Shown: piece after piece, positions 35,778 through 62,000 of the stretch | How the letters are laid out: each line of letters opens with the position of its first letter | Position numbering within the stretch: the first letter of the stretch is position 1 | Assembly (NCBI GenBank): GCA_044892525.1 | Contig: CM097885.1 | Coordinates: forward strand, 2,606,001 to 2,670,000 | Direction: 5' to 3' | From: Schmidtea polychroa | Taxonomy: Eukaryota | DNA length: 64,000 nt | The notes under the pieces: generated by a model | The model's input: the letters and a program-made list of their open reading frames with translations, nothing else | The model's database searches: none | Told to the model about the DNA's origin: nothing | Translations under genes and position numbers: made by a program

Positions 35778-37650
35778 TTAATTTAATTTCAATCGCTTCT
35801 CGGTTGGCTGGGATTCTTGATCGAGATCGGTATCGATCTGCTCGGTAGCCGCCTGTGTTGCCGGTGGCATCACGATCACCATCGGTGGGGGTGGAGGTGG
35901 TGGGGGAGGCGCGATTTGCGATACCGCCTGTGAGATGATGGGAGTGTTGACAATAATTGTGATTGTGGGGGCAGGCATCACCTGGGGCACCGCCTGCGGA
36001 CCGATCCGATCCATATCTGCTGCTGCCGCCGCCTCCTTCTTGTCGTCCCCGCGGGCCGTTCCCCCCATATCGGATTGCCTAGAGATTAATGGTTCCTGCG
36101 TCGCGGCGTGACCGTCCCAGATATATTTCTCACCCTTCTTAGCGTCCTCCTCTCCTACCTTCCGCCCGATTACCGTTTCCTCGATACCGAATATATCCGT
36201 TCGACGCTCCGCCATCATTTTCAGATTGTAATCGACATTCGGGCCCGATGTGAACGGCGTGTCCTCTTGCGATTTGTTCTTGGTGTTGCGGTCTCGGTGC
36301 TCTCGCCACGAGGGGTTCAATAGGCCAACATGAATGTGCTGATTGGCTTGGCTCGTCGTGATCTTCTTGTTATCGCCGAGTGGTGAGATCAGGAACACCT
36401 GGATGGAAACGGACAAATAAACAAACAAATATCATTGGACTAATTGCAAAACGGAACATAGTAAAATGAAAATAAATTACTTCATCATTTTGTTTCTTAG
36501 ATTTCGCTTTCGGATCGTAAGGTTTAATGAGGACTTCTTCCGGTTTGATAAGATTTGTTCTAGCTGCATCGCTTACAGGCTGTTTGAATGTTCCAGTTGA
36601 ACCAAGCGGCATTGGTGGAGGAGGAGCAGGGATTGAATCTTCCTCTTCATCACTCACCTCCATGTCTTCCACTTCCATGTCATCGTTTTCCTTATCACCA
36701 TGAACATCAGTTTGACGAATTTTCTCTTCTTCAATTTCTTCCTCTTCTTCTTCCTCAACTTCTTCTTCTTGTTGTGTTTTATTATCTTCAATCCACCTAT
36801 TAACAACTTGTTCTCCTCTTTCTTCAGCAATCGCTCTTGCTCCAACCTCTTCTGGAATTGTAGGTGGGGGAAAGTTTCCAACTTCATTAGGTTGATAATC
36901 TACCATTTCCACAACAACAAAATCATGCCAATCAATTTGTCCATAAGCAACCCTTTCTTTGTCTTCAGCCTCCATTTCCTTTTTACGCTGCCTTGCCTGA
37001 TACCGATCCCAGGATACACGATATTTACAATTTTTCATGAATATTTCTGGGCTTTTTGATTCTTTATTAAGTTTTTCAATGATATCATTTGGAGGTAACA
37101 AAATTTTGGTAAATTGTTCAACAAGTTTGGTGAAATAACTGAACATATTGTGCTGAGGACGCAAGAAATCAAATAAATAATTACGTTGCTCACGATTCAT
37201 GAGCTGGGTTAAAAATTGTCTGCCATTTCGTGCTACAAATTGAGCTGTAAGTCTTACAATATCAAGCTCCAAACTATTAATACTCGGAGGGTCAACTATA
37301 AATTCAAATTCTGCTGGTGTTTCCTTGGGTTCAAAAACTTCTTGAATAGCTTTAGGTGTGTCTTGAGCCAATTTCATGGCTGTAGGAACTGAAACATTAG
37401 CAGAAATAGATTCAACTGTACCCTCAATACATTGCTTAACTCTTTGATTATAATAAGGATTGTAAGGGTCAAGAGAATTAAGAAAGTTAAATTTGGGATT
37501 ATTAGCTTCATTTATTTTAACCCTTGCTTCAAAATCAGGTCCATTTCGAGCAACAAATTCTGCCGTTCGGTCAACAATATTTCTGACATCTGGTGGCGGA
37601 ATTATTACACCAAATTTTGGTGCAATGTGCTCTGGTTCAGTTATAGTCAT
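35778..37650 (-). CDS. SF3A1: Splicing factor 3A subunit 1 (Prp21/SAP114), about 596 aa; exon 1 37650-36481, 82-nt intron 36480-36399, exon 2 36398-35778
   Basis: Two SURP domains (IVDRTAEFVARNG; IVRLTAQFVARNGRQFL), PRP21 motifs IDWHDFVVVE and MAERRTDIFG...IWDGH, and a phase-0 GTAATT...TCCAG intron that joins the two ORFs in frame. Confidence 0.95.
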
Positions 37651-41367: not shown

Positions 41368-42207
41368 AGTAGTGTGGTTATATACCCAACCAAAACAGCC
41401 CCCCAACAAAAACATGCCTCCAAATCACTTAAGCTATTAGAAAAACAACCTAAAACTTATACTTTTATAGTATTTTAACCCTATATTTTGAAAACAACCA
41501 CCCTTAATGACTCTAACTGTTTTAATCTTTAAAGCCTCAAACTCAAAAGCTTCAAACTAAAAAGAGAATAGAAAAGAAAATGGCATTATGAAAAAGTTAG
41601 AGGGCTATTTGATCTTTATCAGATTATTGATTTTAAATTATATAAATTAAAAAATAAATGAAAAATAGTAAAACTGCTCTGAGGGGACAGTGGTATTTTT
41701 TTTTTTTTTTTTCACTGTCCCCTCAACAGTTTTTTTTTGATCCGGATCATTTTTTTTATTTATCAACCTCTTTCGTTTATCGAATCTCTTCCAATATACA
41801 AGCTGGCCAGACTCATACATCAGAATCAATCCGATAATAGCAGCACACCTTATTATTCGCTTCTCGCTCGAATACGATTTCATCGGCGTTTTAAGTGTGC
41901 TGCTCGAAAGTACAAATGAATTCGAAAGCGAATCCGAAAGAGGTCCGAAAACAACTGAGAAATAAATGTGCACATTACCGGAATCGATCCGGGGGTGTTC
42001 GAAAGACAGGTGGCGATAATTACCGGTTCGCCACCATCACCCGTTTCAATATTTTTTTTTTCATATTTATGTTTAAAAAATAATTAATTAATAAAAAAAT
42101 AAAATAAAATAAAATAAATAAAATAAAATATACAAGTACTTTATAAATATAAGATACCCACACTATTTTCAATATTATTTTCAAATTTTTAATATTATTT
42201 TATGTTG

Positions 42208-42288
42208 AAAAAAACTAACCACAGTTAGGATTTGAACCGCTATCCATTTGAACCACTGTGCCGGTCTAGCCCACTGCGCTATCTAGGA
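42208..42288 (-). ncRNA. Pol III tRNA-like unit A (second copy at about 54876-54957)
   Basis: A box TAGCGCAGTGG, B box GGTTCAAATCC starting 43 nt later, T7 terminator. Confidence 0.5.
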
Positions 42289-42535
42289 TTGGATTTTTGT
42301 CATTTTTTAGACTATAAATAATCGATTCAAGTTCTTTAACTCTTTCCTGTAATTGTTTCATTTTCTTCAATCTTATATCAGCAACATCTACAGCCTTCAT
42401 ATAAAAATGTCGATACTTTTCATTATCTACCATCAACTCTTTGATGTATTCTAATGGTTCTTCTTCTCTTCTTCTCATTCTTTTATGTTTAACTTCATTC
42501 AATTCATTTCTCATTCTTTCTTTTAACTCATCCAT
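42266..42535 (-). CDS. Small coiled-coil Polinton protein (89 aa)
   Basis: Preceded by TTTATAAAAATG like other genes of the element; charged heptad-like sequence. Confidence 0.55.
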   Translation of the reverse strand: MDELKERMRNELNEVKHKRMRRREEEPLEYIKELMVDNEKYRHFYMKAVDVADIRLKKMKQLQERVKELESIIYSLKNDKNPILDSAVG

Positions 42536-42696
42536 TTTTATAAATATTTTTTTATTGGATATATTAATTTTTGGTAGCTTAAGTTAAAACGTTTTTGATC
42601 TTAAATTTCCAAGAGTTGCCGTTGACCAATCTCCTTAAAAATTTGTACAAGTACTAAATCGAGTATGCTGATCAATATTTCGTTAAAAAAAATTTG

Positions 42697-42778
42697 AAAA
42701 AAAATGACCGAAATGGGATTTGAACCCATTGGTATTGGCAATGCAGTCGAGTGCTATTACCACTAAGCTATTAGAGCT
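42697..42778 (-). ncRNA. Pol III tRNA-like unit B, 5' half resembles tRNA-Cys (second copy at about 55117-55198)
   Basis: TAGCTTAGTGGTAATAGCACTCGACTGCA, then a perfect T-arm ATGGG-TTCAAAT-CCCAT and a T8 terminator. The anticodon stem does not pair. Confidence 0.55.
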
Positions 42779-42938
42779 ATACTCAATATAAAATAAGTTG
42801 TTAATGTGTGACTATTTATTGATGAAATTAATAATTAATTATTCATTTTCTCGACAAGTACCACTCAGATCGATCTGAAAATTTAAATATATACTAAAAT
42901 CAGTACGCTGAATCAGATTCCGTTGAAAAAAAAATATC

Positions 42939-43076: not shown

Positions 43077-44358
43077 ATGAATAATATAAAAATTCAAGAA
43101 AAAAATAAATTAAATCTTGATTATAATAAAGAATTTACTCATGAAATCAAGAAAAACGATGTACTTAAAATCTCCCCAACTTCAGGATCTATTGCAAACT
43201 TAAATCGTAGGGGTGATATAGTTTTTCAATCTCTTCAAACATCAAACCCTATAGATATTTGTAATGCCAAATTATATTATAAAATCGAATTAGAAATTGA
43301 AGCAAACAAAGATATAACCCTAGAAAATAATTTCTTTCCAAATTTATTCTCCAACATGAGATTAAAACTAGGATCATCAGAAATTGAAACTGTTTTGCAT
43401 CCGGGAGTATATTCTACAATGTTAAATTTTATTTTGACAGGTTATGATTATAAAAACGAATATGGTGAATTAACAGGTTGGATTCCTGATGTTAATAAAG
43501 GGGATTTAGATAAAGATGGTTTAGATGTAAACCATGGTTACCATAAAAGAGCTGAACTTTATAAATCTAAAAAATTTGAAGGTTATTTTGAATTAAAACA
43601 CTTATTTGGATTCCTTCAAAACTATAATCGTATATTTCATAATGTTTTTATAGAATTCATCTGTAATAGAGTAGAAGGTGATAAAAGATTGTTCTATGGA
43701 GCTGTAGATACAAAAGCTAAATTAAAATTATCAACACTTGAATTACATATACCTGAATGGACATTAAACCCACATTCTGAGATTAAACTCCTTGAAAGAT
43801 TAAATTCCAACAAGTCTATAAATGTAAATTATTTAAATAGAATCTGTAGGGAATTTAGTATGACAGAGGGTTCAACATATTCTATAAAGGTAGCAAATTT
43901 AGCATACCGACCAAGATATATCTTGATTGGATTCAAAGAAGTAGATTCATCTTTCCAAAAAAATAACAACTTGTTTATTCAAAAGATTGGAGTTGATAAT
44001 TTAAAAACAAATTCAATTAAATAGTTCTTATTATCCAATAAATAGAATGGAATTTAATATTGAAAATAATGAAAACATATTCCCATATCTAAATTATATT
44101 GAAACATGTTATGATTTCAAAGTTGAACCGCAATTAAGTTTAGAAGATTTCAAAAATTTATATTCTATATTTTGTATAAATGTTTCAGACCAAGATGATC
44201 GCCTAGCCATAAATAATGTTGATGTTACACTTCATGTAACAAAGGATTCTAATTTTAAAGCTAAAGTATATACATTAATATTAGAAGAAAAGAAAATAGA
44301 AATGAAATTATATGGTGGAAAGATTTCAATAATCGAAAATGTTAGGGGAGATTCTTGA
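43077..44358 (+). CDS. Polinton major capsid protein (double jelly-roll), frameshifted at about 44005
   Basis: Motifs LENNFFPNLFS, ELKHLFGF, PRYILIGF, QLNSSYYP and YSIFCINVSDQ. The +1 frame after the A-run at about 44003-44007 reads KQIQLNSSYYPINRMEF directly into ORF 44047. Confidence 0.8.
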
Positions 44359-44387: not shown

Positions 44388-45800
44388 ATGTCTCTAAATA
44401 AATATTGGAGATGTGAAAGTTGTAATTGTCAAGTTACAAGACATCATAAAGCAAGTCATTTAAAAACTAAAAAACATACAGGAGGTGATCTAATTCCACG
44501 AGCTGGAGGCGATTTGCAATCTTCAAAAACAACATCTTCAATATTAAAACCTTTTACTACAGAAAAATATCCAGGTGAAAGACATTTATTTAAACACAAC
44601 TATACTGGACCAGGAACACGTCTAGATATTAGATTAGATGAAAATAATAATCCCAAACAAGGAGAAGAACCAATAAATAGAATTGATCAAGCAGCTTTAA
44701 AACATGACATTGCATACAATTCAACAAATCTTAGAGATAGACATGTTGCAGATGTGAATTTAATACATGATTTAAATAGTATCCAAAATCCATCAACCCA
44801 AGAAAAGATTCAAAGAGCTCTAGTTAAATTAGCAATGAAAGGTAAGATTTTCATAGGCTTAGGACACAGTCCGATCACCATGGGTGCAAGACTTCCTAGG
44901 AAAGCAAAAGATGTTGCTTATAAAAAGATTATCGAACAAGCAGAGATTGAAAGATCCCTCGAGAGTACAGCCAAGACTAGTTTACAAACCCCAACAGAAT
45001 CAGAAATAAAATATGCAAAGGAATTACACCATGAATTTAGAAAAAATAAAAAATATTTAAAAGTTCAAGTACATGAAAAAGATCAAACATGGTCTGCTGA
45101 TTTAGTCTTTATGCCAACCAAATCATCAGACCCTGAAAAATATAAAATAATTTTAACTGTAATAGATTTATATACAAGATTTGCTTTTGCAAGATGTTTA
45201 GAAAATAAAACAGGATATTCCATTACAGAAGCATTTGAAAATATATTTGAAGAAAATCAAAGAATCCCAAAATATTTATGGTGTGATAAAGGAACAGAAT
45301 TTTATAACAAAGTTTTTACAAAGTTTTTAAATGAAAATGATATTAAATTATATTCAACAGAAAACGAAGGAAAAGCAGTCGTAGTTGAAAGATTAAATAG
45401 AACATTAAAAAATAAAATGTGGAAATATTTTACTGCTATTGGAAAACAAAAATGGAACAATGAATTGTTACAAAAGATTGTAAATGAATATAATAATGAT
45501 GTACATAGTTCTATAAAATTAACACCTTTAAATGCTTCCATGAAGCCTGAAACCATTAAAGTGGTAAATATTGAAAATGATGTTATTGAAAAACCAAAGT
45601 TTAAAATTGGTGACCGAGTAAGAATATTTAAATATAAAAATAAATTTGAAAAAGGATTCACAGCAAAATGGACAAATGAAATTTTTATTATAAATAAAAT
45701 ACATTATACAACTCCAATAACATATAGCATCTTTGATTTAAATAATGAAAAATTATTAGGTAGATTTTATAATAATGAACTACAGAAAACAGATTTTTAA
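44388..45800 (+). CDS. C2H2 zinc finger + parvovirus-type PLA2 + retroviral-like (rve) integrase fusion
   Basis: CESC...H...H finger; HNYTGPG...NRIDQAALKHDIAY; DDE motifs WSADL / WCDKG / VVERLNRT; C-terminal KFKIGDRVRI...WTNEIF region typical of Polinton integrases. Confidence 0.92.
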   Translation: MSLNKYWRCESCNCQVTRHHKASHLKTKKHTGGDLIPRAGGDLQSSKTTSSILKPFTTEKYPGERHLFKHNYTGPGTRLDIRLDENNNPKQGEEPINRIDQAALKHDIAYNSTNLRDRHVADVNLIHDLNSIQNPSTQEKIQRALVKLAMKGKIFIGLGHSPITMGARLPRKAKDVAYKKIIEQAEIERSLESTAKTSLQTPTESEIKYAKELHHEFRKNKKYLKVQVHEKDQTWSADLVFMPTKSSDPEKYKIILTVIDLYTRFAFARCLENKTGYSITEAFENIFEENQRIPKYLWCDKGTEFYNKVFTKFLNENDIKLYSTENEGKAVVVERLNRTLKNKMWKYFTAIGKQKWNNELLQKIVNEYNNDVHSSIKLTPLNASMKPETIKVVNIENDVIEKPKFKIGDRVRIFKYKNKFEKGFTAKWTNEIFIINKIHYTTPITYSIFDLNNEKLLGRFYNNELQKTDF

Positions 45801-45811
45801 GTCGACAAGCC

Positions 45812-46552
45812 CTAAAACAAACTTTTCCATATTTCAGCTTCTTCTCTATCCAAATAAATATAATTATATTTTTCTTTCCAATGATTATCAACAAACATAT
45901 CAAACATATTCTTATCAGGTTCAACATTTGAAAATAAATCATTATAAATCATATTCTTATCACGGCGATCTAATTTAAAAAATATAAAACAATTGGAATT
46001 ATTTCTTATTGAATTTTTATCTAAAGCATAATATGTTTGAGATATATAAATAACATTACAATTATTATGTCGACCTCGTGTAAAGTAACTCTTTTGAATC
46101 TCTTGATTTTTCATATTAACAACATCATCAAATATAACTAGATTCTTTTTATCTTTAGGAAGTAAATCACAATGTAAAACATCTTCAGGTTTATTAGAGA
46201 ATAAAACTTGAATTGCCTCCTGCCCTTCTTCACAAATATAATCATTTTTATTACTAATATCTGATTCTAAAATCTTTTCCTTATACCAATCAACCATATC
46301 ACAAGGTTGAAAAACTTCTTCAGGACACCTATGTTGATTTTTAAAAATATCAATTATTGCTTTTTTAGTTAATTTATTTTCAAATCCACATTTCAAAAGT
46401 TGTAATTCTGGTTGATTTATGGTTGTAGAATAAAAGATTAAATTATTATAATCTAAAAAATCATCTTCAAGTAACATTCTCAAAACAAGTACATTCTTTC
46501 CACATCCAGAAGAACCAACAATTAATAATCTAAAATTATCAGGAAATACTTT
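45812..46552 (-). CDS. A32/FtsK-like genome packaging ATPase, main part (native first 18 codons displaced to 51254-51309)
   Basis: Walker A GSSGCGKN, Walker B LVIFDD, RGRHNN and ISQ motifs. Confidence 0.92.
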   Translation of the reverse strand, partial: KVFPDNFRLLIVGSSGCGKNVLVLRMLLEDDFLDYNNLIFYSTTINQPELQLLKCGFENKLTKKAIIDIFKNQHRCPEEVFQPCDMVDWYKEKILESDISNKNDYICEEGQEAIQVLFSNKPEDVLHCDLLPKDKKNLVIFDDVVNMKNQEIQKSYFTRGRHNNCNVIYISQTYYALDKNSIRNNSNCFIFFKLDRRDKNMIYNDLFSNVEPDKNMFDMFVDNHWKEKYNYIYLDREEAEIWKSLF

Positions 46553-46713
46553 AGTTAAATCCATCTTTAGATCCATCTTTAAATTTGCAGCAAAAATCTC
46601 GAAACTAACAATATATATTTAATCAAAGAATTTCTAAATAACAAGTTTTAATTAATTCGCAAAACCGCCAATTCCAAATTATTTAAACAAACAGATATCT
46701 AACTCTCCCCTTC

Positions 46714-49700
46714 TTAAGAATTTTTCCACTTCTTCAGCCACTCGATTCTTCTTTCTTTCGTTCCTTCTTGTGAATGTAGTTCGACTCGATGAGGTGATAG
46801 AAATCTGGCGATTTTATATGGGCCATCGTATTGCATACCATCCTTGTGCCTGTTCTGCGGCTCTTTACGTACGAGTACCTCCTCCCCCACCTCGAAAACA
46901 CGAGTGCCCCTCTTTGTCTTATCCATGGCTCTCATAGTGTCTGCGGCTTTACTCGAATTAAATCTCGCGTCTTCGATTCTTTCGCTTCTTGATATCTCGG
47001 CTTGTTTCAGGTTAGAGTGTAGGTTAACACTCCGTCCATAGATTATCTCAAATGGTGATAAACCTGTAGCACTTTGTCGACTGCTATTTATAGTGAACTC
47101 TATTCTGGGTAGAAGTTCGTGCCAGTTTCTCTCTTCACATCCGCCTGCCAATGTTGCTGTAATAAGATCTCTTATCGTTCGTATGGCTCTTTCGGCTAAA
47201 CCATTTGATTGGTGCTGATAAGGTGAGCTGAATTCCTGTTTGATTCCAAGTTTCTGTAGCTTCTGTCTTAAAAAATTCCCTTCGAAATTTCGGCCTCTAT
47301 CTGTTAAAATGCTCTTCGGTTTTCCAAATCGATAGATCCAACTATTAAGTATTGTTTTGAAAATGGTCCCTTCGTCTTGCTTTGTGATTGCAGTTAAAGA
47401 AATCAGTTTGCTAAAACGGTCCACCATTACTACCATATATTTTTTCATGGCGTTTATTTCCATGTAAGCCACATCTAAAACAATCTGTTCTAGGAATTCA
47501 GAGCTATATCTAGGAATAAATGTTTCCTTGGTTTTTGTCTGATCGATCTTTCTCTTAGCGCAGATCTCGCAACATCGTAAACAGAGTTGGATTGTTTCTT
47601 GCATTTTCGGCCAATAAAATATCTTTTCCATATAATGAAATAATTTCTTAACTCCAATGTGACATAGTTCTTCATGTAGTGTTGTTGTTAACAGGCCTGC
47701 AAATGTTTCTGGGACTAACATTAAGATATTTTTGTTCTTTTCTACTGTTATTAATCCTCCATCAATTCGTGTATTTTTTACGTTAAAAGGAAAACAATTC
47801 TTTTTCTCCCGTGTACATCCATTTTCCAATATCTCTCGCAGCTCTTGAAACCGAATGTCCTTTTGTTGTTGTTCCCATACTTTTTCCATAGCTTCTGTTC
47901 TTTGGATAGTATATATATATCTAATCTTTGATTTTCCTTGCTTAGCTTCTTCATGTCTTGTTTGACACTGGGTGCAAATCATACTTTTTAATCTTGATAG
48001 TCCATATGCATTCGAGTGTTCTTCTCCTTTCCGATATTTTAGTTCAAAATCATATTCCGACAGGTTAGCTAACCATGTTTGGAACTGCGGACTGATTGGC
48101 GTTTTTGTAGTGTTCATGAAAACCAATGCCTTGTGGTCGGTGCGAATTATGAATTTTTTTTCCGTACAGATATTCTCTAAAATGCATGACGTATTCATGT
48201 ACGGCGAGCAGTTCTTTCCTGGTTACACAGTATCCCTTTTCATGTGATGACATATGTCTCGAGCCATAAGCTATGACAGATTCTTCTCCATCTTCTGTAA
48301 TTTGACTCAAAACTGCACCAATGGCTCCAAAACTAGCGTCTGTGTCTAAGATAAAAGTCCTATCTTCTCTTGGAAAATCAAGGATAGGTGCTTCGCACAA
48401 CCGTCTCTTCAGAGTTTGGAAGCTCTCATTGCATTCTTTAGTCCAATTTATATCTTTATCGCATCCAGATGTTGCAGCGTATAATGGTTCGGCGATTTTG
48501 GCATAGTCTTTGATGAATCTTCTATAGTAGTTCGTTAATCCGAGAAACGATCTCAATTGTTTTGAACATTTTGGTACTTCTGCTTTCTCAATCTCTTCCA
48601 CTTTCTTCCTGTTTGTCTGGATACCCTTCTCGTTAATTGTGTGACCAAGGAAACACAATTCTGTTTTATTGAATTTGCATTTTTCTGGATTTATCTTCAG
48701 TCCTGCCACTTGAATTCTTCTGAATATTTCCCTTAATAGCTCATCGTGGTCTTTTTGACTTTTACCATATACCAAGATATCATCTAGATAAACTACTACT
48801 CCCTTGAATAGCATTCCTTCTAGCACTGTGTGCATCAGTCTCTGGAATGTCGCAGGAGCTGTTGCTAAGCCAAATGGTAGTCTATTGAAGCAAAATTGTC
48901 CTTCTCTTGTACTGAATGCAGTCATCTCTTGAATTTCTGGAGCTAACTCCACTTGATAATACGCCTGACCTAAATCGATTGACGAAAATATTTTTGCATT
49001 CGCGAGACAGTCTAGTAAGAATTTGGTGTTAGGCATCGGAAATGACTCTTTTTCTGTTATGGAATTTAATCCACGATAATCTACACACATCCTGATAGAT
49101 CCATCTTTCTTCCCTACTATCACTAACGGGGCATTCCAAGGACTCTTGCAACACCGAATAACATTTGCTTTCATTAACTCTTTTATCAGTTCTTCAATCT
49201 TTTTCTCCATGTGCATTGGTTGACGTCGAGGATGTTGCATTATTGGGCCTCCTGTTATCCGCATCTCATGTCGAACTAAGTTTGTAAATCCCAGATCGAA
49301 TTTCGATGCCATAAAAATTCCGCCGAATTCCCTGATCATTCCTTCAATATCTTTATTATTCTCACCTGCCATTGCCACTAGTGCTTTATTTATTCTTTCT
49401 TCATCAGTGTAAATTTTGTTTATCAATGACGTTTCTATATTATTGATTTTCATTAACTTTACTCCAAACTCTTTCATTGTATCAATGCCCCCTATGAATT
49501 CGGGTTTGATCTCTTTTACCACTACTACTGTGATCATTTTGGTCTTCTGATTCCACGTGGCCGGTATAGTCATGTATCCCATTGCTTCTTCACCTCCAGT
49601 TGAAAAAACTCCGCACAATAATATCATACAACGTTTAAGTTCTGGTTTGCCTATTTTCTCCCACAAATTCTTGCTCATAACTGTTACTGATGCTCCAGAA

Positions 49701-49870
49701 TCCCATAACATCTCTGTTTCGGCATTATTCAACATTATTTTACTCCAATTTCTTCCATCTTTCGTCTGGTACATCTCTTCTTCTGCCTCGTCTCTTCGTT
49801 GTTCATTTCCTATTTCACAATTTATTGTCTTGACTCCACCGACGAAATGAAACCCATGGAGTCGCTGATG
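46714..49870 (-). CDS. pol: Gypsy Pol (aspartic protease, RT, RNase H, integrase), frameshifted at the T8 run 48154-48161
   Basis: WDSGA, RMCVDYRGLN, YLDD, DTDAS, TDHKAL, HHCC zinc finger, D-D-E and GPY motifs across ORFs 48065-49774 and 46714-48198. Confidence 0.95.
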
Positions 49871-51125
49871 TTTTTCCGTCTTCTCTCAATATAGTATATT
49901 TCTCAGGGACATTGTATCTATCTTCCATATTGCTGTGATCCATTCTGAAATCCTGGCTGTTCTCGGTGTAATCTCTTGTTTCAGATTTTGAATCTTCTTC
50001 TATGCACGCTATTCTTTGATATCGTTGTGGAACATCTTTCCGTAACGAAAAACAATCTCGGAACCCGTGTCCTTCCTTGCCACATATCAGACATTTATTT
50101 CCCAGTGGACACTCATACCTTCTATGTCCCCTTTCGCCACAGCAAAAACAATCACCTACCGTTAATTTTGGGACCGATGCTTGTGGTAGTCCCCTACTTT
50201 CATTGTACAGCCTCCTTGCAATATTCTTCATGGATATTGTTGGCAGCTTCCTTTCTGAGCTATTCGGGATTCTCGCATTTCTCAAGAATTGTTGTCTTGG
50301 AGATTGTTCTCGACGACCATGGTTATTTCCTTCGTATTGTATTGGTCCGCGTATAGGATGTTCGTCTCTTCTTGATCTGTGGTGACTAAATTGGTCCTCT
50401 GGTAGTCTTCTTTGTGATGATGTATGCATGGGATCTTGGGTATTCTTTTGAATTCTCATCTTCCCTCCCTCAGTCACGCTAGCGTATGTTCTTTGACCGA
50501 TTGCTTTAATAAATTCTGTTTTATGGTTTCCATTTTTGTTACTTTCAAAAATTTTCGCCAATGATCTCGTTTCTTCAATTTTTGTTTCTGGTTTCGTCAA
50601 TAGTATCTCTCTCAGTCTCGCATCGCGTGCTTTATTTGCGATGAGATCTTGAACAATATCTTCTTCTGATCGTCCTGAATTTATAACTTCAGCTAAAGCT
50701 TTCCTTAGCCGTATTTCAAAAGCTGCAAACCTTTCATCATCTTCCTGTTCCATAGCTGCCAATTCTCTGATTTTGTCAGTTATTGATTTTGTAATTGTGA
50801 ACGTATTTAAGAACCACGCTTTGGCTTTTACATCTGTTGTTTCTGTTTCTCTGACGTTTCCCAACAATGTCTTTGCTTCTGCCACTAATAACACATCGAA
50901 AGTGCTTGTCAATCGCTGTCCATTTGTCAGCAACCATTCTTCTATATCCCTGATCCATTCTTCGGCTTCTTTTAAACCTCGTCCATCATATCGTCTGATG
51001 TTCAATGTGAGCATGTCTTGGCATGATTTCGGTAGGCATTCCATTAGCGATTTTGTCGATTTTGAAATGGCGTTGATATTTTGATTTTCGGCGTGGTCGC
51101 CAGTTAAATCCATCTTTAGATCCAT
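49815..51125 (-). CDS. gag: Gypsy Gag with two CCHC zinc knuckles; start codon lies inside the 5' LTR
   Basis: CFCCGERGHRRYEC and CLICGKEGHGFRDC; capsid-like YDG...EEWI and QEDDERF motifs. Confidence 0.92.
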   Translation of the reverse strand: MDLKMDLTGDHAENQNINAISKSTKSLMECLPKSCQDMLTLNIRRYDGRGLKEAEEWIRDIEEWLLTNGQRLTSTFDVLLVAEAKTLLGNVRETETTDVKAKAWFLNTFTITKSITDKIRELAAMEQEDDERFAAFEIRLRKALAEVINSGRSEEDIVQDLIANKARDARLREILLTKPETKIEETRSLAKIFESNKNGNHKTEFIKAIGQRTYASVTEGGKMRIQKNTQDPMHTSSQRRLPEDQFSHHRSRRDEHPIRGPIQYEGNNHGRREQSPRQQFLRNARIPNSSERKLPTISMKNIARRLYNESRGLPQASVPKLTVGDCFCCGERGHRRYECPLGNKCLICGKEGHGFRDCFSLRKDVPQRYQRIACIEEDSKSETRDYTENSQDFRMDHSNMEDRYNVPEKYTILREDGKTSATPWVSFRRWSQDNKL

Positions 51126-51253
51126 CTTTAAATTTGCAGCAAAAATCTCGAAACTAACAATATATATTTAATCAAAGAATTTCTAAATAACAAGTTTTAA
51201 TTAATTCGCAAAACCGCCAATTCCAAATTATTTAAACAAACAGATATCTAACT

Positions 51254-51309
51254 ACTTTATTATTAAATTTACTCTTATGTCTATTTAAAATTGGTTTCCA
51301 AATATCCAT
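51254..51309 (-). CDS. Displaced native N-terminus of the packaging ATPase (MDIWKPILNRHKSKFNNK)
   Basis: Removing the LTR element and one TSD joins it in frame to VFPDNFRLLIVGSSGCGK. Confidence 0.85.
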
Positions 51310-51324
51310 TTTGTTTATTATAAA

Positions 51325-51840
51325 ATGACAACTGAAGAATCTTTGCAAGAATTAATAAATTCAAATAAAAATAAATCAGTAGTAATTGATGGTAAAAAAT
51401 ATTTTATTGGAAAACATGTAAAAGAACAAGTTAGAGCGAAGCTCCACGAAGCTAAAGAAGGTGGCATTCTTCCATTAGCTGCTTTAATACCTGCAATCAT
51501 TGCTGGTTTATCAGGTGCTGCTGGAATAGCTGGAGGAATTGCAACTACAGTTCAAAAAGCTAAAGAATCTCAAAAGACAGACCTAGAAAAAGAAAAACTA
51601 CAAACTGAAATCGATTCAATGAAGAAGGTAGGGCAAGCTAAGGGAAAGGGTCTCTATCTTGATCATTATAAAGGTAGAGGTTTAAATGATTTTTTAAAAA
51701 ATCAAATTTCTACATCTGAATCTTTATCTTCAAAAGATAAAGATGATTTAAAAAAAATATGTAAATCTTTAAAGAATGGATGCCTTTGTAAAACTAAAAA
51801 TGGTAAAGGTTTATACTTGAAGCCCTTCGAACCCCATTGA
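51325..51840 (+). CDS. Putative virion core protein, adenovirus pX/mu-precursor-like
   Basis: EGGILPLAALIPAIIAGLSGAAGIAGG resembles adenovirus pX (RGGILPLLIPLIAAAIGAVPGIA); repeated GKGL/GRGL motifs. Confidence 0.7.
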   Translation: MTTEESLQELINSNKNKSVVIDGKKYFIGKHVKEQVRAKLHEAKEGGILPLAALIPAIIAGLSGAAGIAGGIATTVQKAKESQKTDLEKEKLQTEIDSMKKVGQAKGKGLYLDHYKGRGLNDFLKNQISTSESLSSKDKDDLKKICKSLKNGCLCKTKNGKGLYLKPFEPH

Positions 51841-51862: not shown

Positions 51863-52744
51863 ATGGTATATGAAGAAAGATTAGCACTTTTAAAAAAATT
51901 ACAATCAGAACAAGATAAATATAATAAAAAAGATACAACTCAACATGCTGAATCTATAATATTAAATGAGGTAATAACACAACAACAGGGGCCAACAATT
52001 AAAGCTATAAAAGAGTTGGAAGATTTCAATGAGCAAGCAAAATTTAAAGAGTTAGAAGATAAAAAACAAAAAATAAAAGAACTAGAGTGGCAGGATAAAG
52101 AAAAAGAATCCAGTGAAAACCATCCTGAAAGAAATCAAAGAAAACGCAGAAGAATTTCTAATGTGGAAGAAGAAGAAATGTTTTTAAAAACAAAACCTCT
52201 TAAAGTTGATCCTAAAATTAGAGATGATTTACCTCCTTCAATTAGACCCACATTTAATACTAATACTGAAGGATATCAAATAATAACAATTAATAAACAA
52301 AACTTTACTTTATATTCAAATTCAGAAAATAAATCACGTATTCATTCACAAAATGTTTATAATAATGAATATTTAGACTTTGAATTTACAGATGATTTTT
52401 ATAGATTACTTTGCGGATATTCTTCAGATGATGTTGAAAAAATTAAAAAATATTTAAATTTAATAAAATTAATAAGAGCTAGTTCTAAAGCAAAATATAT
52501 TCAAGATTTAAAGAATTATTTAAATAAAAATGAAAAGGGTTATGTTGTTACAGAGGGAGAGGGATTAATTAGTGAAGGTGGTAAACCAAATCCCATCAAT
52601 CTTTTTATTGAATTAAGAAAACTATTAGCTGCAAGGAAAGCAAGACATAATAATTTAGATTCTGATATTTTAAAGATTTCTAAAGATTTGTTAAAACAAG
52701 GAATAATTTCAAAAGATAAATTTAATAAGTATACGAAGTTATAA
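51863..52744 (+). CDS. Polinton hypothetical protein (293 aa)
   Basis: Intact ORF in the gene block; GEGL motif followed by a helical C-terminus (LRKLLAA...LLKQGII) of a kind I recall from Maverick ORFs. Confidence 0.7.
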   Translation: MVYEERLALLKKLQSEQDKYNKKDTTQHAESIILNEVITQQQGPTIKAIKELEDFNEQAKFKELEDKKQKIKELEWQDKEKESSENHPERNQRKRRRISNVEEEEMFLKTKPLKVDPKIRDDLPPSIRPTFNTNTEGYQIITINKQNFTLYSNSENKSRIHSQNVYNNEYLDFEFTDDFYRLLCGYSSDDVEKIKKYLNLIKLIRASSKAKYIQDLKNYLNKNEKGYVVTEGEGLISEGGKPNPINLFIELRKLLAARKARHNNLDSDILKISKDLLKQGIISKDKFNKYTKL

Positions 52745-52766: not shown

Positions 52767-53162
52767 ATGACTCCTTCAATATTAGATTTTTTAAAAACAT
52801 TTGGAATAAATGCAAAAACAAATTTTGATTTAAAAGATTATGCAAATTATTTAAATTTAAAAATTAAAATATTAATGAATGATGAATTATCAAGTCTGGA
52901 GAGTCCCCTGAATATAATAATCAATTATCAAAATTCAAATGAAAAAGGATCTCATTGGGTTTGTATATATAAGAAATCTATCTACTTTGATTCTTTTGGG
53001 ATTAAACCTACTAAAGAAGTTGAAGATTATCTCTTGAGGGGTTCTCCGATTGATTCCCCAAATGGTTATACTTTTAACTCTTTACAAGTTCAACCTTTGA
53101 ATACTAAAATATGTGGTATTTTAAGTTTATATGTTTTGTATAGATTGAATAAGGGAGAGTAG
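52767..53162 (+). CDS. Adenain-like cysteine maturation protease, C-terminally truncated (native tail at about 55412-55483)
   Basis: GSHWV, YFDSFG and QVQP...ICG catalytic motifs. The duplicated 3' part continues ...NKGEGKGHTQDFESIIQEIYNDLESLL*. Confidence 0.88.
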   Translation: MTPSILDFLKTFGINAKTNFDLKDYANYLNLKIKILMNDELSSLESPLNIIINYQNSNEKGSHWVCIYKKSIYFDSFGIKPTKEVEDYLLRGSPIDSPNGYTFNSLQVQPLNTKICGILSLYVLYRLNKGE

Positions 53163-53403
53163 TGAGGAATCTATGCACCCCAGCACCCCCACCCTCAAAA
53201 AAAACAGCGCTATTGACCCATATTTTCCACATTTATATGCTTTTTTACCCCATATTCTTCACTTTTTTTAACTTTTAAACTTTGTCACCTATTGCCATTA
53301 ACCCTTAATTTCTTCCCTTAAAAGTAAAAAAGTTCGGAATAGATGTATTTATAGATTAGTAATTCCGAGAAAAGGTAACGGGGTGCATAGATTCCTCACT
53401 ACT
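53158..53403. mobile_element. 246-bp element with perfect 24-bp TIRs beginning AGTAGT (mini-Polinton-like)
   Basis: AGTAGTGAGGAATCTATGCACCCC (53158-53181) and its exact reverse complement (53380-53403). No TSD seen. Confidence 0.7.
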
Positions 53404-53979
53404 TGGTCTTAAGGATTTAATGTTATAAGGATTTAATGTTATAAGAATATCAGATTACCTAATTCATAATGATCTAGGTCGCCTGATCACCTTAAGGTTT
53501 TGAAAGTTTTAAAAATAAAAAATTTTATGAAAATAGTAAAACTGCTCTGAGGGGACAGTGGTATTTTTTTTTTTTTTTCACTGTCCCCTCAACAGTTTTT
53601 TTTTGATCCGGATCATTTTTTTTATTTATCAACCTCTTTCGTTTATCGAATCTCTTCCAATATACAAGCTGGCCAGACTCATACATCAGAATCAATCCGA
53701 TAATAGCAGCACGCCTTATTATTCGCTTCTCGCTCGAATACGATTTCATCGGCGTTTTAAGCGTGCTGCTCGAAAGTACAAATGAATTCGAAAGCGAATT
53801 CGAAAGAGGTCCGAAAACAACTGAGAAATAAATGTGCACATTACCGGGATCGATCCGGGGGTGTTCGAAAGACAGGTGGCGATAATTACCGGTTCGCCAC
53901 CATCACCCGTTTCAATATTTTTTTTTTTCATATTTATGTTTAAAAAATAATTAATTAATAAAAAAATAAAATAAAATAT

Positions 53980-54796
53980 TAATAGAGAAACGCCAACTCA
54001 ATAAATTCAACATAAACGCGATATATTTCAATTGTACAACAATCTTCGTCAGGCCGCAATCTGGATAATCAATAATAAGACATAAAATATGCAATATCTA
54101 AACAAATTAACTAATAATAATCATCTCCAAACTGTATCAAAAATTTAAAAAAAAAAAAAAATATTTTAAAAAAAAATATTTCAAAAAAAACATTTTAAAA
54201 AACCAAACCATATTTTACATAACCCACATACATATTATTTTAAAATTAAATTTTAATTTAATCACATTTAACATTCAACATAAAATTAACAAATTTTAAA
54301 AAAAAATTACATAGTTTACAAAACACAAACATAATTATACCACAAACAAGACTCCCAACCTTCATCCTTCAATTACTTAAACACATTCAAAATCTCCGTG
54401 GAACGGGCAACTTGATCATTTATTTTTGGATTTAAATATCTAATCAACAATGCCTCACAAGTTACTCGTTCCCAATAATTACTTAAACCTTTTGAAATAA
54501 TTTTAAAATCAGAGATACCTATTTTTTTACTGACACATTTCCTAACATGATTACTAATATTAGTCAATCCTTTTGGTCGACAGTGTTCAAGAACTCGGGT
54601 GCAGAGATGACGGGCAGTCTCTCCAATGTATATGGCATTACACCCATTACATGAAAATTGATACACAAGCTCAGAACACAAACCAATTGGCGTTGGACAT
54701 TTACTAGTAAACATACTGCTAACTTTGCAAGAAGTGGAAACAATCCTGAATTGATCCTTGTCTACATATTTGAGAATTTTATGTTTAAATTCTCTG
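53980..54796 (-). mobile_element. 5'-truncated Penelope-like retroelement (GIY-YIG endonuclease 3' end plus tail)
   Basis: LVYQFSCNGCNAIYIGET...RVLEH...EALLIRYLNPKIN; 12-bp TSD AAAATAAAATAT (53968-53979, 54797-54808); empty site visible at about 42120. Confidence 0.88.
54015..54058 (-). ncRNA. Candidate minimal hammerhead ribozyme in the Penelope tail
   Basis: The minus strand reads GCGGC-CTGACGA-A-GATTG ttgta CAATT-GAAA-TATA-TC-GCGT: catalytic core boxes, stem II, palindromic stem III and an AUC cleavage triplet. Stem I is weak. Confidence 0.55.
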
Positions 54797-55531
54797 AAAA
54801 TAAAATATACAAGTACTTTATAAATATAAGATACCCACACTATTATTTTCAAATTTTTAATATTATTTTATGTTGAAAAAAAACTAACCACAGTTAGGAT
54901 TTGAACCGCTATCTATTTGAACCACTGTGCCGGTCTAGCCCACTGCGCCATCAAGGTTTGAATTTTTGTCATTTTTTAGACTATAAATAATCGATTCAAA
55001 TTAAAACGTTTTTGATCTTAAATTTCCAAGAGTTGCCGTTGACCAATCACCTTTAAAATTTGTACAAGTACTAAATCGAGTATGCTGATCAATATTTTGT
55101 TTAAAAAAAAAATTTGAAAAAAAATGACCGAAATGGGATTTGAACCCATTGGTATTGGCAATGCAGTCGAGTGCTATTACCACTAAGCTATACTCAATAT
55201 GAAATAAGTTGTTAATGTGTGACTATTTATTGATGAAATTAATAATTAATTATTCATTTTCTCGACAACTACCACTCAGATCCATCTGAAAATTTCTCCG
55301 ATTGATTCCCCAAATGGTTATACTTTTAACTCTTTACAAGTTCAACCTTTGAATACTAAAATATGTGGTATTTTAAGTTTATATGTTTTGTATAGATTGA
55401 ATAAGGGAGAGGGAAAGGGGCATACGCAGGATTTTGAATCTATAATTCAAGAAATTTATAATGATCTAGAATCTCTACTATAAGGATTTTTACTATAAGG
55501 ATTTTTACTATATGAATTTACTACTAAAGAA

Positions 55532-56296
55532 ATGGAGCTTCACAACCCTCCGGAAGATAATTTAAAAAAAATGGTAAACATAATGTCAGATAAATATTCA
55601 AGAACTTTATCTATAAATTCAAAAGAATCAGACTTTACTATAAACTTTCAAGATTCAATTAAATTAGATCAAAATTTAAATTATGAATTGGGGCTATTAT
55701 GGTTTTGTGCTTATAATACTATTTTTAATATAACTAAAGATAATAATAAATTTACTATTCAAACTCGTGATGGGCATAAACCAGAAATTATAACAATAGA
55801 ACCTGGGGCATATGAGATAAAAGATTTAAATGATATACTTTCTAAAAAAACAAATGAAGGAATTAAAATTAAAATGGATATACCAACTTCAAAATGTGTA
55901 ATGACTTTGAAGAATATAAAAATTAGTTTTTTAGATAATTGTTTCTTTCACACAGTTTTAGGATTTAAACCTATGGATATAACAATAAAAGAAGATAAAA
56001 TAATAACATCAGAACATATTATAAAAATAATAAATACAAACACAATAAATATTCATTGCGATTGTATAACAGGTTCTTATAATAATGGTAAACAAACAAA
56101 TGTTTTATATTCCTTTCCCTCAAACACAGTTCCTATGGGATATAAAATAGTTGAAAGAATGAATCCTCCAAATTATTTACCTTTATGTAGAAAATATATA
56201 ATGGATATTAATTTTAAAATTCTTAATCAAGAAGGAGAATTGATTGATTTTAATGGAGAAGAGATTTCAATGTATTTACATTTGAAACAGGTTTAG
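55532..56296 (+). CDS. Polinton minor capsid (penton) protein; true start may be at about 55583
   Basis: YELGL, IEPGAYEI, INIHCDCITGSY, LYSF, YLPL and ILNQEGELIDFNGE motifs. Confidence 0.85.
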   Translation: MELHNPPEDNLKKMVNIMSDKYSRTLSINSKESDFTINFQDSIKLDQNLNYELGLLWFCAYNTIFNITKDNNKFTIQTRDGHKPEIITIEPGAYEIKDLNDILSKKTNEGIKIKMDIPTSKCVMTLKNIKISFLDNCFFHTVLGFKPMDITIKEDKIITSEHIIKIINTNTINIHCDCITGSYNNGKQTNVLYSFPSNTVPMGYKIVERMNPPNYLPLCRKYIMDINFKILNQEGELIDFNGEEISMYLHLKQV

Positions 56297-56336: not shown

Positions 56337-57347
56337 ATGAGTTCTTATATTCCATGTAATAGAGGTGGTGGAACAATAAAAACAGGGTTTAATACAGAAG
56401 AAATATTAACTTTAACAGAAAATAAATATATTAATGAAAGAGGTGATTCAATGAAGGGTGATTTAATTTTAAATGGACACAAGATAAAAGAATTATCTTT
56501 TCCAACTGATGAAGCTGATGCAGTTAATAAGAAATATGTAGATGGTGTTAAAAAATATACTGATTTAACAACAACAAGAATTGAAAGTTCATTAACAACA
56601 AAAATTGATTCAATGGAATCAAAGCTTAATAATATCGAACAACGATTTAATGATAAATTTGACAAGTTACAAAGTCTGTTAACTGAACAAGTTGTAAAGT
56701 TAAATACTGCTATATTAAATTCTAAAGATAAACAAATTATGAATACTAAATTTAATGCAATATATAATATAATAAATGAGATGATTACATCATTTAATAA
56801 AAGAATTTCAAATTTAGAGTCTCATGGAACACACATTAACACCACACATAGTATTAGAAAAAGAGCTGCTGAATTAGAACAGAATAAAACATTATTACCC
56901 CATACATATAAACATTTTATAGAACCAAGTTTAATAACAACAAACAGTAAAGAATGGGGTGTTTTTATGGTTGTAAAAATTATTGATCCTTATTTCTTTT
57001 TGTTTGATGATGATAATGAAAGAATGAAATGGTTTGTGAAATGTGATTATAATAGTAAGCTTGAAAAGGGTGATGTTATAATGACTAGTTATGATTTACC
57101 ACACGGAGATTGGTATGTTAATACTCATTCACATGGACTACATAAAGTTAAAAGTAAGAATATTCATTTTTCTAGTTCACTTGTACAATATATAGATTTA
57201 ATATTTTATGAAAAAAAGGTTGATGTTGATGAAGTTCGTAAAGCATTGAGAGAATTGTATAAAGATATCCTCTCAACAAGAGTTTCTTTTGATATCCGAG
57301 TATTGGTGCCAGATGGTGCTCAGAAGAATAAAGTCTTATTTTTTTAA
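56337..57347 (+). CDS. Putative fiber/receptor-binding protein
   Basis: GDSMKGDLILNGHKIKEL...PTDEADAVNKKYVD fiber/adhesin-type repeat, long coiled coil, globular C-terminus. Confidence 0.6.
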   Translation: MSSYIPCNRGGGTIKTGFNTEEILTLTENKYINERGDSMKGDLILNGHKIKELSFPTDEADAVNKKYVDGVKKYTDLTTTRIESSLTTKIDSMESKLNNIEQRFNDKFDKLQSLLTEQVVKLNTAILNSKDKQIMNTKFNAIYNIINEMITSFNKRISNLESHGTHINTTHSIRKRAAELEQNKTLLPHTYKHFIEPSLITTNSKEWGVFMVVKIIDPYFFLFDDDNERMKWFVKCDYNSKLEKGDVIMTSYDLPHGDWYVNTHSHGLHKVKSKNIHFSSSLVQYIDLIFYEKKVDVDEVRKALRELYKDILSTRVSFDIRVLVPDGAQKNKVLFF

Positions 57348-57355
57348 TTATTAAA

Positions 57356-57679
57356 ATGGAAGAAGTAAGAGAAGAAAAAATTTACCCAGAATTGAGATCA
57401 TCAGGATATTATTCCGAAGGTCACAAAGGTTCCAAGGCCTCGGCTCCCACAGAACTTGAAATTATGAGAGTAAAAGAATTTAAATCAGAAACCTTACATT
57501 TACAAGATTTATTAAAGCATTATAAAAAAATTAAAAATAGATGGAATAAAGGGAATACAGTTTTAAAAGTTATAGGTTATTCTTTAGGATTTGCATCTGC
57601 AATATTAACAGTTATTTTACCCATAACTTTACCAGTTGTTACTCTTGCACCTGTAATACTTGGAAGTATTTCTGAGTAG
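57356..57679 (+). pseudogene. Truncated Polinton membrane-associated protein
   Basis: IYPEL...ASAP...HYKKIKNRW followed by hydrophobic helices. The ORF stops at the AGTAG junction where sequence composition changes abruptly. Confidence 0.55.
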
Positions 57680-59084: not shown

Positions 59085-62000
59085 TTAGTCCTCATCGGAC
59101 AAAATAACGTCATCGATATCGATGTCATCTTCTCCAAAATCTTCATTTAATTCTTCCTCATCTTCTCCATCATTTTCTCCAACATTTTCTGAAACATTTT
59201 CTGCAACAATTTCTCCAACATTTTCTCCAATATTTAATTCACTTAATCTTACATGCCCATATGCAAGACTAGTATTTTGCCCCACCCAAACCCTTTTGTC
59301 ATCTTTGTTAGTTAGTGCTATTTTTGTGTTTTTAATTGTAAAAATTTGATGATTTTTGCTTGTTATTTTAGTCTGAGGAACCGAAAAAATCTGGTTAGTG
59401 TTATAACAATCCAGGTATGACTGATGTTTTATGTCACCACCTTTCAATGTTACACCTTTAGCCTTTTTTGTTTCCTCATCACCCAACAAGCTATAACATT
59501 TAGGTCTAAGAAAAACCCACTCCTTATATTTAAGACCTTTATTCTCGTCTTTGAACTTTCCAATGACTGAATCAAGGTTCTTACTATATAAGGAATGACA
59601 ACTATTGTAATTGGAAGTATCCAATAAATTATCTCGAACCATTGCAGGTAAAAGAACCTCAAGTTTGCAGTTAATGACTTCGAGGAAAAAAGAATCTGTA
59701 TCACCTGCAACGATATTAATTTTACAATTAAACTCATTGCGAAATGATTCCAGATCCTTATATTGCAATTCATACATTCTAAGTTTAGATAGATCAAGTA
59801 CAGATTGACCAATGTAACTCGGTCTATCTAAACATATAGAATCGGAATTCAATAGTGCTGCAATTAAATTATCTGCTATTTTAATAGATTTTTTAAAAGT
59901 CGGTTTTGACGAATATTTAACTAATTTACCGGCAGTTGTACAAAGACGAAGATTCATTCTTCTCTTTAAATTTTCAACTGTTTTGCCGTATAAACTATTA
60001 TTTAGCAATTTATAATAATTTTTATCTAAGCTATTTACGCTTTTTGATCTTAATTCGGTATTTGTATCTATATATTTTTTAAAAATTGGTGATTGCTTAA
60101 ATCTTACACCCCTATTTACACGTGTTACTTTAACACCAAGTTCCAAATATAATTTTAATAATCTCCAATGAATAACATAATTAGATTTTGGAAGATGAGT
60201 TAATAATAATTTTTCAACCTTAGACCCAGCAGGTTTCATTTTTTCAGCAGCTACAGGGAAATCATCCAACTTATCATGAAGCTCAGAAGGAATTACAAGA
60301 TCAACTTCAAGTGTGTATCCATAAGACAAAGATTCAAGATTTAAATTCCTACATTCATCCATTATTTTATCAAATCCATCAAGAACCCAACAAAATTCGC
60401 CACAAGGTAATGATTGACTTAAAGCCCAGCCATAAAGATTATTAATATCTATATATAGTAACTCAGTGTTCTCGTCGGTTTTTACGTAATGCTTATTCAC
60501 AAAAGTAAGACCGCCTCTTATTCCACCCTCATAAAAGCTAAACATTTCGTTTTCAGTTATGAGTTCAATTGGTTCATTTAAAGACATTAATGCAGAAGAC
60601 CAAGACATGCCTGGAATTCCGAAATAATTCAATGGTTCCAATCTATTGTGAGCAATGGATTTCAACCGAAACTGATGAAAGAAATCAGCCAAAAGAAAAC
60701 AATCAAGTTTTAGGTAGATCATCATATAATCTAATAAAGTTACGCAATTAGTTTCTACCCAAATCTCCTGAGCTTTTTCATACTCAAGCTCAGTGACACC
60801 CTCCCAGATTGGTGGTAATTCATAAGTAGTTTGGAGAATATCTAAAGAAGTGGCGAAATTATAAGGGAAGATTCCTTTTTCACTTACTATGGTGCCAGAA
60901 AAAGCAGAATTAGTAAAAGGCAAAGAATTCAAAGTTTTGACTGCTTTAGCCAAAGAATCATTGACAAATTGATACGAATCAATGAATCTTAGGCTAATTT
61001 TACCTAAATGAGCAATCAAAGATATAAATTTTTCCGTAGTTATTGGGATGCACCCTAAATTCCAATTTTTAAATTTATTTAATCCATATTTAAGTATATG
61101 GTGCATATCGTATCCCTTCAAGTTGTGAAATACGATAGGCAAAATTTTATTTATTTTCCTATTTACGTTACATGTGCTACAAGCTGCACCCAAGTATTTC
61201 CCCGTAAAATGATCGTGATCTCTAACAGGATCGACGATAGATTTCATACAAAGATAACAAACAGATGCACTAACAAATTGACGTTGTTCAATTTTTGTTA
61301 ATTTCATCATAGGTTTCCTACCCATTTTATAATAAAAAGGAAGAACCTTATTTAATGCTATATCCTCTATAGCACTTAAAAAACTCTCGACGCAATCTAA
61401 ACCTATGAACTGCTGATAAGATTTAGATCCGTCAAAGTTATTTACAAGTAAAAGACCAGCAGATATTGGCATGTGTCGTTGGAAATGATCATTATCAGAA
61501 GGTAAAATAGCCTCAAAATCTGCATAAACTACAAAAGGAGGAGTTACTGTTTTCGACCAGTCAGTAAACTGTAATAATTTATTTTGAGGGAAGGTGTAAA
61601 GAGTTGTTCCTAATTGATTACGTTTACATAATATTTCATGTTTTTCTAGTGCGTGTTTATTATTAAACCCATTCAAACACCGATGGCACCATAATGAACG
61701 TATGCGTGTAGGACAACTAGTGTTGATATGACAATTCATTAACTTATTTAAATTACTTATAGCAACGTAATGGAAATTGTTTCCTTTATTTAATAATAGT
61801 AAATTAATTACAGTTCCATTTAAAACTTTGGAACGATGTATAATATCTAAATGTGGGTGTTTTAATACGTAATTATCTATTAATTGTTTGTTATTGTCAT
61901 AAGAAAAAACGTTAATTATTAAGCCTGGATTTTTGGCCTCGAATTTTCTAATATCTTTTAATTTCATGGGTAAGTCCAATGGATTATATATTAATTCAGA

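Follow-up and report, generated by a model that had tools for sequence, protein, structure and literature searches.

An ORF of 470 aa on the plus strand (44388..45800) of the window, by which we mean the whole stretch of 64,000 nucleotides that was analysed, joins a phospholipase A2 (PLA2) to a DDE integrase in one chain. Comparison with database proteins and metagenomic loci indicates that this fusion is real and common to many related elements. We read the ORF as the PLA2-integrase gene of one alpha-adintovirus-like Maverick/Polinton lineage, whose product would be packaged as a precursor and cut at glycine junctions, and we give this reading a probability of roughly 0.6 on the basis of sequence comparison, a predicted structure and analogy. 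Because the architecture is already labelled in public data, the gain lies in the prevalence and history of the fusion and in a testable model of its processing, and less in its discovery.

The fused ORF and its host element

The ORF contains no internal stop, as the preliminary description had stated, and encodes in order a zinc-finger-like N-terminus, the PLA2, a linker and an rve integrase with an SH3-like end. The PLA2 is of the parvovirus VP1u type (aa 42-159; 44511..44864, +). Phospholip_A2_4 (PF08398) matched aa 66-147 (E 4.3e-9, score 36.9 against a cut-off of 23.9), and the intact YTGPG loop (aa 72-76) and H106-D107 pair reported earlier were confirmed, together with Y110 and D122. 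The calcium-loop and HD motifs are shared with the parvovirus VP1u enzyme (PF08398), which is tethered to a capsid protein, whereas the PLA2 described here is tethered to an integrase. The Polinton-type DDE integrase (45021..45797, +) carries D238, D300 and E334, and rve (PF00665) matched aa 229-322 above its cut-off (E 7.2e-12). Chromo had no Pfam match in the 470-aa protein (E ≤ 0.1) or in its last 71 aa (E ≤ 10), in agreement with the earlier claim of a DDE integrase without a chromodomain.

Glycine motifs lie at the domain boundaries, where they had been placed before. HTGGD (aa 30-34) and RAGGD (aa 38-42) contain two GG|D motifs (aa 32-34 and 40-42; 44475..44513, +) that make up a candidate protease site, and the second of these is conserved and marks the N-terminus of the PLA2. 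FIGLG (aa 155-159, with G157-x-G159; 44850..44864, +) closes the final helix of the PLA2 and is a candidate GX|G site. A variable linker of about 51 aa in the window copy follows (44865..45020, +). Internal initiation is possible at Met165 of this copy, and a Met is not conserved among its relatives.

Judged from sequence and model, the finger (C-x2-C-x11-H-x5-H, aa 9-30; 44412..44477, +) is the weakest part of the protein. Its Cys/His spacing and its predicted fold, a hairpin plus helix with a pLDDT of about 68-79 in AlphaFold, speak for the C2H2 finger of the preliminary description, but Pfam gave zf-met only, at E 6.7, and the finger is not part of the core, being found in 10 of 57 fused proteins with a C4 ribbon instead in 3. 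zf-U1 was matched by two of the 32 aligned proteins. The spacing presumably resembles the U1/matrin type more than the classical C2H2 type.

An AlphaFold2 model built on a 32-row alignment (mean pLDDT 76.9, pTM 0.49) comprised three ordered units with low-confidence stretches between them at aa 32-56 and 159-170. Both glycine junctions are modelled with low confidence and are likely exposed. A fold search with the C-terminal part matched the integrases of foamy virus, RSV, MELD virus and mavirus, with MELD virus first and mavirus third. When the PLA2 model was compared with BFVD, the top matches were VP1 proteins of densoviruses and parvoviruses, at weak scores (best E 0.03, none at 0.001). 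In a VIA-align comparison of the same model, rice sPLA2 ranked third with a Z of 6.3 (rmsd 3.7, 83 aligned), level with helical bundles that are unrelated. Against PDB sequences, the PLA2 part matched parvovirus capsids only, at E about 0.4.

The fused ORF sits in a Maverick/Polinton at about 43-62 kb of the window. The hallmarks of these elements were present, namely PolB, an rve-family DDE integrase, a double jelly-roll capsid protein and an A32-like ATPase, and the gene order was capsid, fused gene, ATPase, pX-like gene, 293-aa ORF, cysteine protease, probable penton, two ORFs and polymerase. The double jelly-roll major capsid gene (43077..44358, +; PF21738, E 2.6e-17 and 0.0028) is broken into two ORFs in different frames. 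The A32-type packaging ATPase gene (45812..51313, −; PF04665, E 4.6e-8) has an LTR retrotransposon inserted close to its 5' end. A stand-alone pX-like core protein (51325..51840, +) showed a weak Adeno_PX match at aa 45-72 (E 0.057), and the conserved 293-aa ORF, which belongs to no Pfam family (51863..52744, +), has homologues adjoining fused genes in three other loci (L004, L007 and L010). In the adenain-like cysteine protease ORF (52767..53162, +), the His, Asp, Gln and Cys motifs are visible and the Pfam match is weak and below the cut-off; its homologues occupy the expected places in canonical loci, and the window ORF is truncated by an insertion with a 118-bp direct repeat on either side. 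The probable penton (55532..56296, +; no Pfam match) has homologues that adjoin the capsid gene in L028, L038 and L039, which are canonical loci, and two more ORFs, a coiled-coil protein of 336 aa and one of 107 aa (56337..57679, +), have homologues next to fused genes. The protein-primed family B DNA polymerase (59085..61967, −) matched PF03175 (E 4e-31), and the Pfam scan of this ORF listed no OTU family. No pair matching terminal inverted repeats was seen among the inverted pairs listed for 38-64 kb, nor between 28-43.1 kb and 57.6-64 kb, and the ends of the element may be lost or lie beyond the window.

The retrotransposon in the ATPase gene (46553-51253) is of the Ty3/gypsy type, with gag, protease-RT-RNase H and integrase in separate frames; its two 152-bp LTRs are identical, with the ends AGTT...AACT, and the target duplication is 5 bp long. 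Since contigs of two runs have loose ends at 46553, other copies appear to be free of it. A 246-bp element with perfect 24-bp inverted ends starting AGTAGT (53158-53403) is possibly a tiny non-autonomous Polinton derivative; AGTAGT is given as the commonest end motif of vertebrate Mavericks in a passage of PMC8097293. This element is one part of a composite insertion of 2.1 kb that interrupts the protease gene and is flanked by the unusual 118-bp direct repeat (53042-53159 and 55294-55411). Two copies of another repeat, 93-97% identical, were found at 41631-42884 and 53498-55295, and the latter holds a 113-aa GIY-YIG-like ORF (54373-54714, −), which we take to be possibly a Penelope-like remnant. 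A long satellite with a 28-bp unit and a strong C/T skew fills 1-28524 of the window, and a host SF3A1/PRP21-like splicing-factor gene with Surp and PRP21 domains is located at 35778-37650 (−).

Occurrence and conservation of the fusion

Fifty-seven database proteins were fused, the window protein included, with a median identity of 41% and a range of 22-98%. All six catalytic residues (H106, D107, D122, D238, D300 and E334) are kept in 51 of them, and the other 6 look truncated or gapped. H106 was found in 55/57 and both D107 and D122 in 57/57, and D238, D300 and E334 were invariant in the 32/32 aligned proteins. With aa 55-200 as the query, 50 proteins were found, comprising 30 with both families by precomputed Pfam, 18 Lottia gigantea gene models and 2 with one family; in two of the Lottia models, the PLA2 runs on into the start of the integrase. 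When the whole protein was the query, both domains occurred in 25 of the best 150 representatives, a set that this query biases toward fusions. The absence of a chromodomain, which had been regarded as a feature, holds for the window ORF but is not part of the core, as 4 of the 41 complete fused proteins keep one.

The DNA loci numbered 81, consisting of 80 kept of the 202 confirmed in metagenomes and one viral locus; IMG/VR gave one locus, which was unfused. A PLA2 was present in 44/81 loci, in 27 of them in frame with the integrase, in 5 adjacent and out of frame, in 5 as a canonical PLA2X elsewhere and in 7 with no integrase on the contig. The junction was in frame in 27 of the 32 loci with adjacent PLA2 and integrase; sister and related copies thus preserve the fused frame, and the refutation named beforehand, a stop or frameshift at this point in sister copies, was not borne out. 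Fused genes adjoin homologues of the capsid, ATPase, pX, protease or penton genes. Estimates from the aligned sequences put both PLA2 and integrase under purifying selection, with dN/dS of 0.07-0.50 and 0.09-0.38, respectively, below 1 in all computable pairs (9/11) at a pS of 0.43-0.88, which is near saturation. Conservation suggests that both enzymes have been kept functional. Among 46 proteins measured, the linker is 2-58 aa long in 45, with 2-8 in many members, and 219 aa in the remaining one. It has no Met in 31/46, so the integrase would usually lack a start of its own and the fusion would normally be its sole source.

Two proteins are labelled 'PLA2-Integrase' in supplementary file 2 of Buck et al. 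2024 (PMC11071296), those of Adintovirus nemertoderma6405 (BK066529) and Adintovirus sediment15303 (BK066759), which come from an acoel-worm data set and from estuary sediment. As in the window protein, PLA2 precedes the integrase in one chain, the junction has GxG and there is no chromodomain; unlike it, they have no zinc finger and a short linker. Three unsubmitted elements of a Dugesia assembly in the same source (uAdinto11140, 15034 and 20531), labelled 'Integrase' only, have an N-terminal Cys/His region and are very like the window protein by eye. In the main text of PMC11071296, 'PLA2' and both genome names are absent, and the passages searched gave no cleavage sites or mechanism. The text of the genome-map figure in PMC8502044 bears no fusion label. 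PLA2 is a separate gene or goes unmentioned in the searched parts of PMC3671162, PMC5803895, PMC4642659, PMC11296320, PMC8097293, 10.64898/2026.06.19.733378, 10.1101/2023.08.22.554363, 10.1101/341131 and 10.64898/2026.07.28.741253. Public data annotate the architecture, the passages searched do not discuss it, and the window ORF is a further member. The preliminary description had named a common, described architecture as a refutation, and this applies in part: the fusion is widespread and labelled in two published genomes, but no text describing it was found in the literature searched, and subscription papers, Repbase entries or the rest of the PMC11071296 supplements may hold one.

Glycine junctions and proposed processing of the precursor

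Cleavage by the protease of mavirus occurs at GG|X and GX|G, though not at every GxG site of that virus (PMC6048507). A motif of this type (GG|x or Gx|G) is present at the PLA2-integrase junction in 48/57 fused proteins, with GxG in 39/57 and GG in 9/57, and at the N-terminal junction in 23/37, where GG directly precedes the conserved Asp in proteins with at least four upstream residues; pLDDT is low at these places, and a match does not equal cleavage. G-[GASN] lies within five residues of the N-terminal junction in 34/37, and the remaining 9/46 proteins begin at most three residues from the conserved Asp. Stand-alone PLA2s end 0-3 residues past the GxG. Since these starts lie near the Asp and these ends just past the GxG, natural genes begin and end at the predicted cuts. 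The adenovirus consensus is stricter, (M/I/L)xGx|G or (M/I/L)xGG|x (PMC7998265), and is found at only 7/57 PLA2-integrase junctions, with Phe at the M/I/L position in the window copy. The proposal that the glycine motifs are protease sites thus fits the mavirus specificity but not the adenovirus one.

The distribution of the motifs within the element was also examined; the counts come from related, non-independent sequences. GxG followed by a hydrophobic residue occurred 30 times in 9 pX-class ORFs, six-fold above the 4.7 expected, and 0 times per 13,601 residues of integrase domains. The GG dipeptide was counted 0 times against 9.6 expected in ATPase ORFs of the loci (24 ORFs, 5200 residues) and 5 times against about 15 in fused integrase domains. 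Packaged enzymes may avoid the protease motif, which would account for this scarcity, although the sequences are related. Lys is located four residues before the putative cut at 10/10 pX sites and 28/57 junctions, against a background of 12%. If the Polinton protease prefers Lys at this position, the 7/57 fit to the adenovirus consensus would be explained. The pX-like protein of the window carries one K-x-G-G and three GxGL motifs. We assume that the pX GG site ahead of the hydrophobic part, with its Lys, is the counterpart of the adenovirus pX cut site. The three-fragment processing described in PMC7998265 agrees with such a counterpart.

In our model, the precursor would be made as one chain and packaged with other core proteins. 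The element's cysteine protease would cut at GG|D ahead of the PLA2 and at GX|G or GG|X behind it. These cuts, before D42 and G159 in the window copy, would free a 13-kDa PLA2 for membrane penetration and an integrase of about 37 kDa acting on the incoming genome. One of the closest known systems is mavirus virophage (Born et al. 2018, PMC6048507), with a related protease of GG|X and GX|G specificity and virions that contain the integrase and a cleaved hydrolase. Unlike in the window element, integrase MV02 and hydrolase MV13 are separate there, and MV13 is an alpha/beta hydrolase and not a PLA2. That the lipases of Polintons are packaged and assist entry was already proposed in PMC4642659. 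No Maverick virion had been seen according to PMC8097293, which counts against the model. Overall, the sequence evidence makes processing plausible and supports it better than at the outset.

Alternatively, the fusion may be functional and never cut. The two enzymes would then act within a single chain, with the PLA2 tagging the integrase into the particle, and the glycines would be a hinge and helix cap that came down from PLA2X. We consider this possible but unlikely. G157 closes the modelled helix 137-157, the last of the PLA2, and stand-alone PLA2s retain it right at their C-terminus, where cleavage would take off only 1-3 residues; it may therefore be a helix cap. An uncut chain also agrees with the linker of 2-8 residues in many members, with the strict adenain consensus in 7/57 only, and with the activity of parvoviral PLA2 while tethered to VP1 (PMC4642659), and the second junction Gly is absent in 9/57, which counts against cleavage. 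However, it leaves unexplained why GG precedes the PLA2 only where an N-terminal extension exists, and why GxG-hydrophobic is repeated in pX and absent from integrase domains.

History of the fusion

The PLA2X gene of alpha adintoviruses, or group 2 Maverick/Polintons, combines PLA2 with a C-terminal pX-like domain (Starrett et al. 2021, PMC8502044; Sf Maverick CAP, PMC5803895). These elements share with the window element the PLA2 catalytic motifs, the terminal GxG and the core gene set. Their integrase is separate and usually has a chromodomain, whereas in the window element PLA2 is fused to the integrase and pX is encoded on its own; the C-terminal chromodomain of the integrase, an adintovirus trait (Starrett 2021; Buck 2024), is absent from the window ORF. 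In sequence comparison, the FIGLG position corresponds to the PLA2/pX junction of PLA2X and to the C-terminus of stand-alone PLA2s. In the canonical loci L028, L031, L038 and L039, PLA2 runs past the GxG into a basic stretch and then pX, and in fused loci pX is a separate gene; therefore, the integrase replaced pX at the same junction. The comparison shows that in an ancestor the PLA2 half of PLA2X joined the integrase at this native glycine junction, and that pX became a gene of its own.

A single origin of 28 fused integrases was not rejected (AU p 0.64) when P0038 and L072, dropped after inspection of the tree, were left out, and was rejected with P0038 included (AU p 1e-5; 29 fused against 19 unfused rows). 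The P0038 integrase is of another type and is sister to the unfused L072. A reading of many independent fusions, taken from this AU rejection and from a 206-row FastTree in which the 'unfused' label of database proteins may reflect truncated gene calls, fell once these two were dropped. We also rejected stand-alone PLA2s beside an integrase as the state before fusion, since 7 such PLA2s nest inside fused ones (PLA2X root, support 93 and 98; the root is four PLA2X rows and the alignment 120 columns). One clade (L058 and L072) has reverted to a stand-alone PLA2, with an integrase of another type behind it. The simplest reading is one old fusion with later integrase replacement and splitting and one probable re-fusion (P0038).

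The fusion could instead be a tolerated by-product of compaction, in which adjacent late genes lost a stop and the inherited PLA2X protease site made the join harmless, without any benefit from coupling. This is compatible with cleavage and differs on selection only. No PLA2 was found in the same protein in 125 of the best 150 integrase representatives, some of which may be truncated, and the reversal of the L058 and L072 clade and the packaging of an unfused integrase by mavirus (PMC6048507) also suit it. We nevertheless regard it as improbable, as the fusion is kept across 22-98% identity and the P0038 protein, in which PLA2 is linked to the other type of integrase, suggests that fusion happened a second time.

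Returning to a packaged and cleaved precursor, we tentatively propose, at less than even odds, that the fusion works as a Gag-Pol-like device of Polintons. Retroviral integrase is carried into the particle within the Gag-Pol precursor, linked to a structural partner, and the viral protease then releases it. Here, PLA2 would act as a handle for packaging that carries the integrase into the particle at a fixed stoichiometry, a protease preferring Lys four residues before GG|x or Gx|G would free both, and the arrangement would be selected strongly enough to re-form after integrase replacement, as in P0038. The analogy is one of function, with homology within the integrase fold only, and the window element differs from Gag-Pol systems in being DNA virus-like, in its cysteine protease and in having no frameshift control. 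Conserved fusion to a presumed virion entry enzyme, with an integrase usually lacking a start codon of its own, is good genomic evidence for integrase in the particle, and the fused protein offers a small two-site substrate for finding the specificity of the Polinton protease.

That the fusion is an accident of this copy, or an artefact of assembly, in a dead element is scarcely credible: the window copy is damaged in three neighbouring genes (capsid, ATPase and protease), which also counts against our model, and frame breaks fall at the junction in L016 and L079, but the other breaks in fused loci are scattered, and 56 other fused proteins, 27 in-frame loci and published genomes with the fusion refute it. 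A 92%-identical database protein exists, and contigs of other runs cross the junction region with 0 differences at 44655-44918 (run X2) and 1 difference at 44903-45016 (X15). Because of this protein and these contigs, the window copy is not an assembly artefact. No single contig among those listed spans the whole ORF. The stretch was found whole or partly in 20/24 listed runs, from 9 studies under three organism labels, with many variant copies. No indel was detected in the PLA2-integrase linker among the 12 examined of 18, and one run contained a minority single-base deletion early in the integrase.

Two further observations concern related sequences. The P0154 cluster, a fused PLA2-integrase-chromodomain protein with 58 members on contigs of up to 191 kb, may mark a recent expansion in one host. 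In L009, which also has a PLA2-integrase, protease-like and pX-like sequences share one stop-free frame (2182-3513, −), a possible second fusion.
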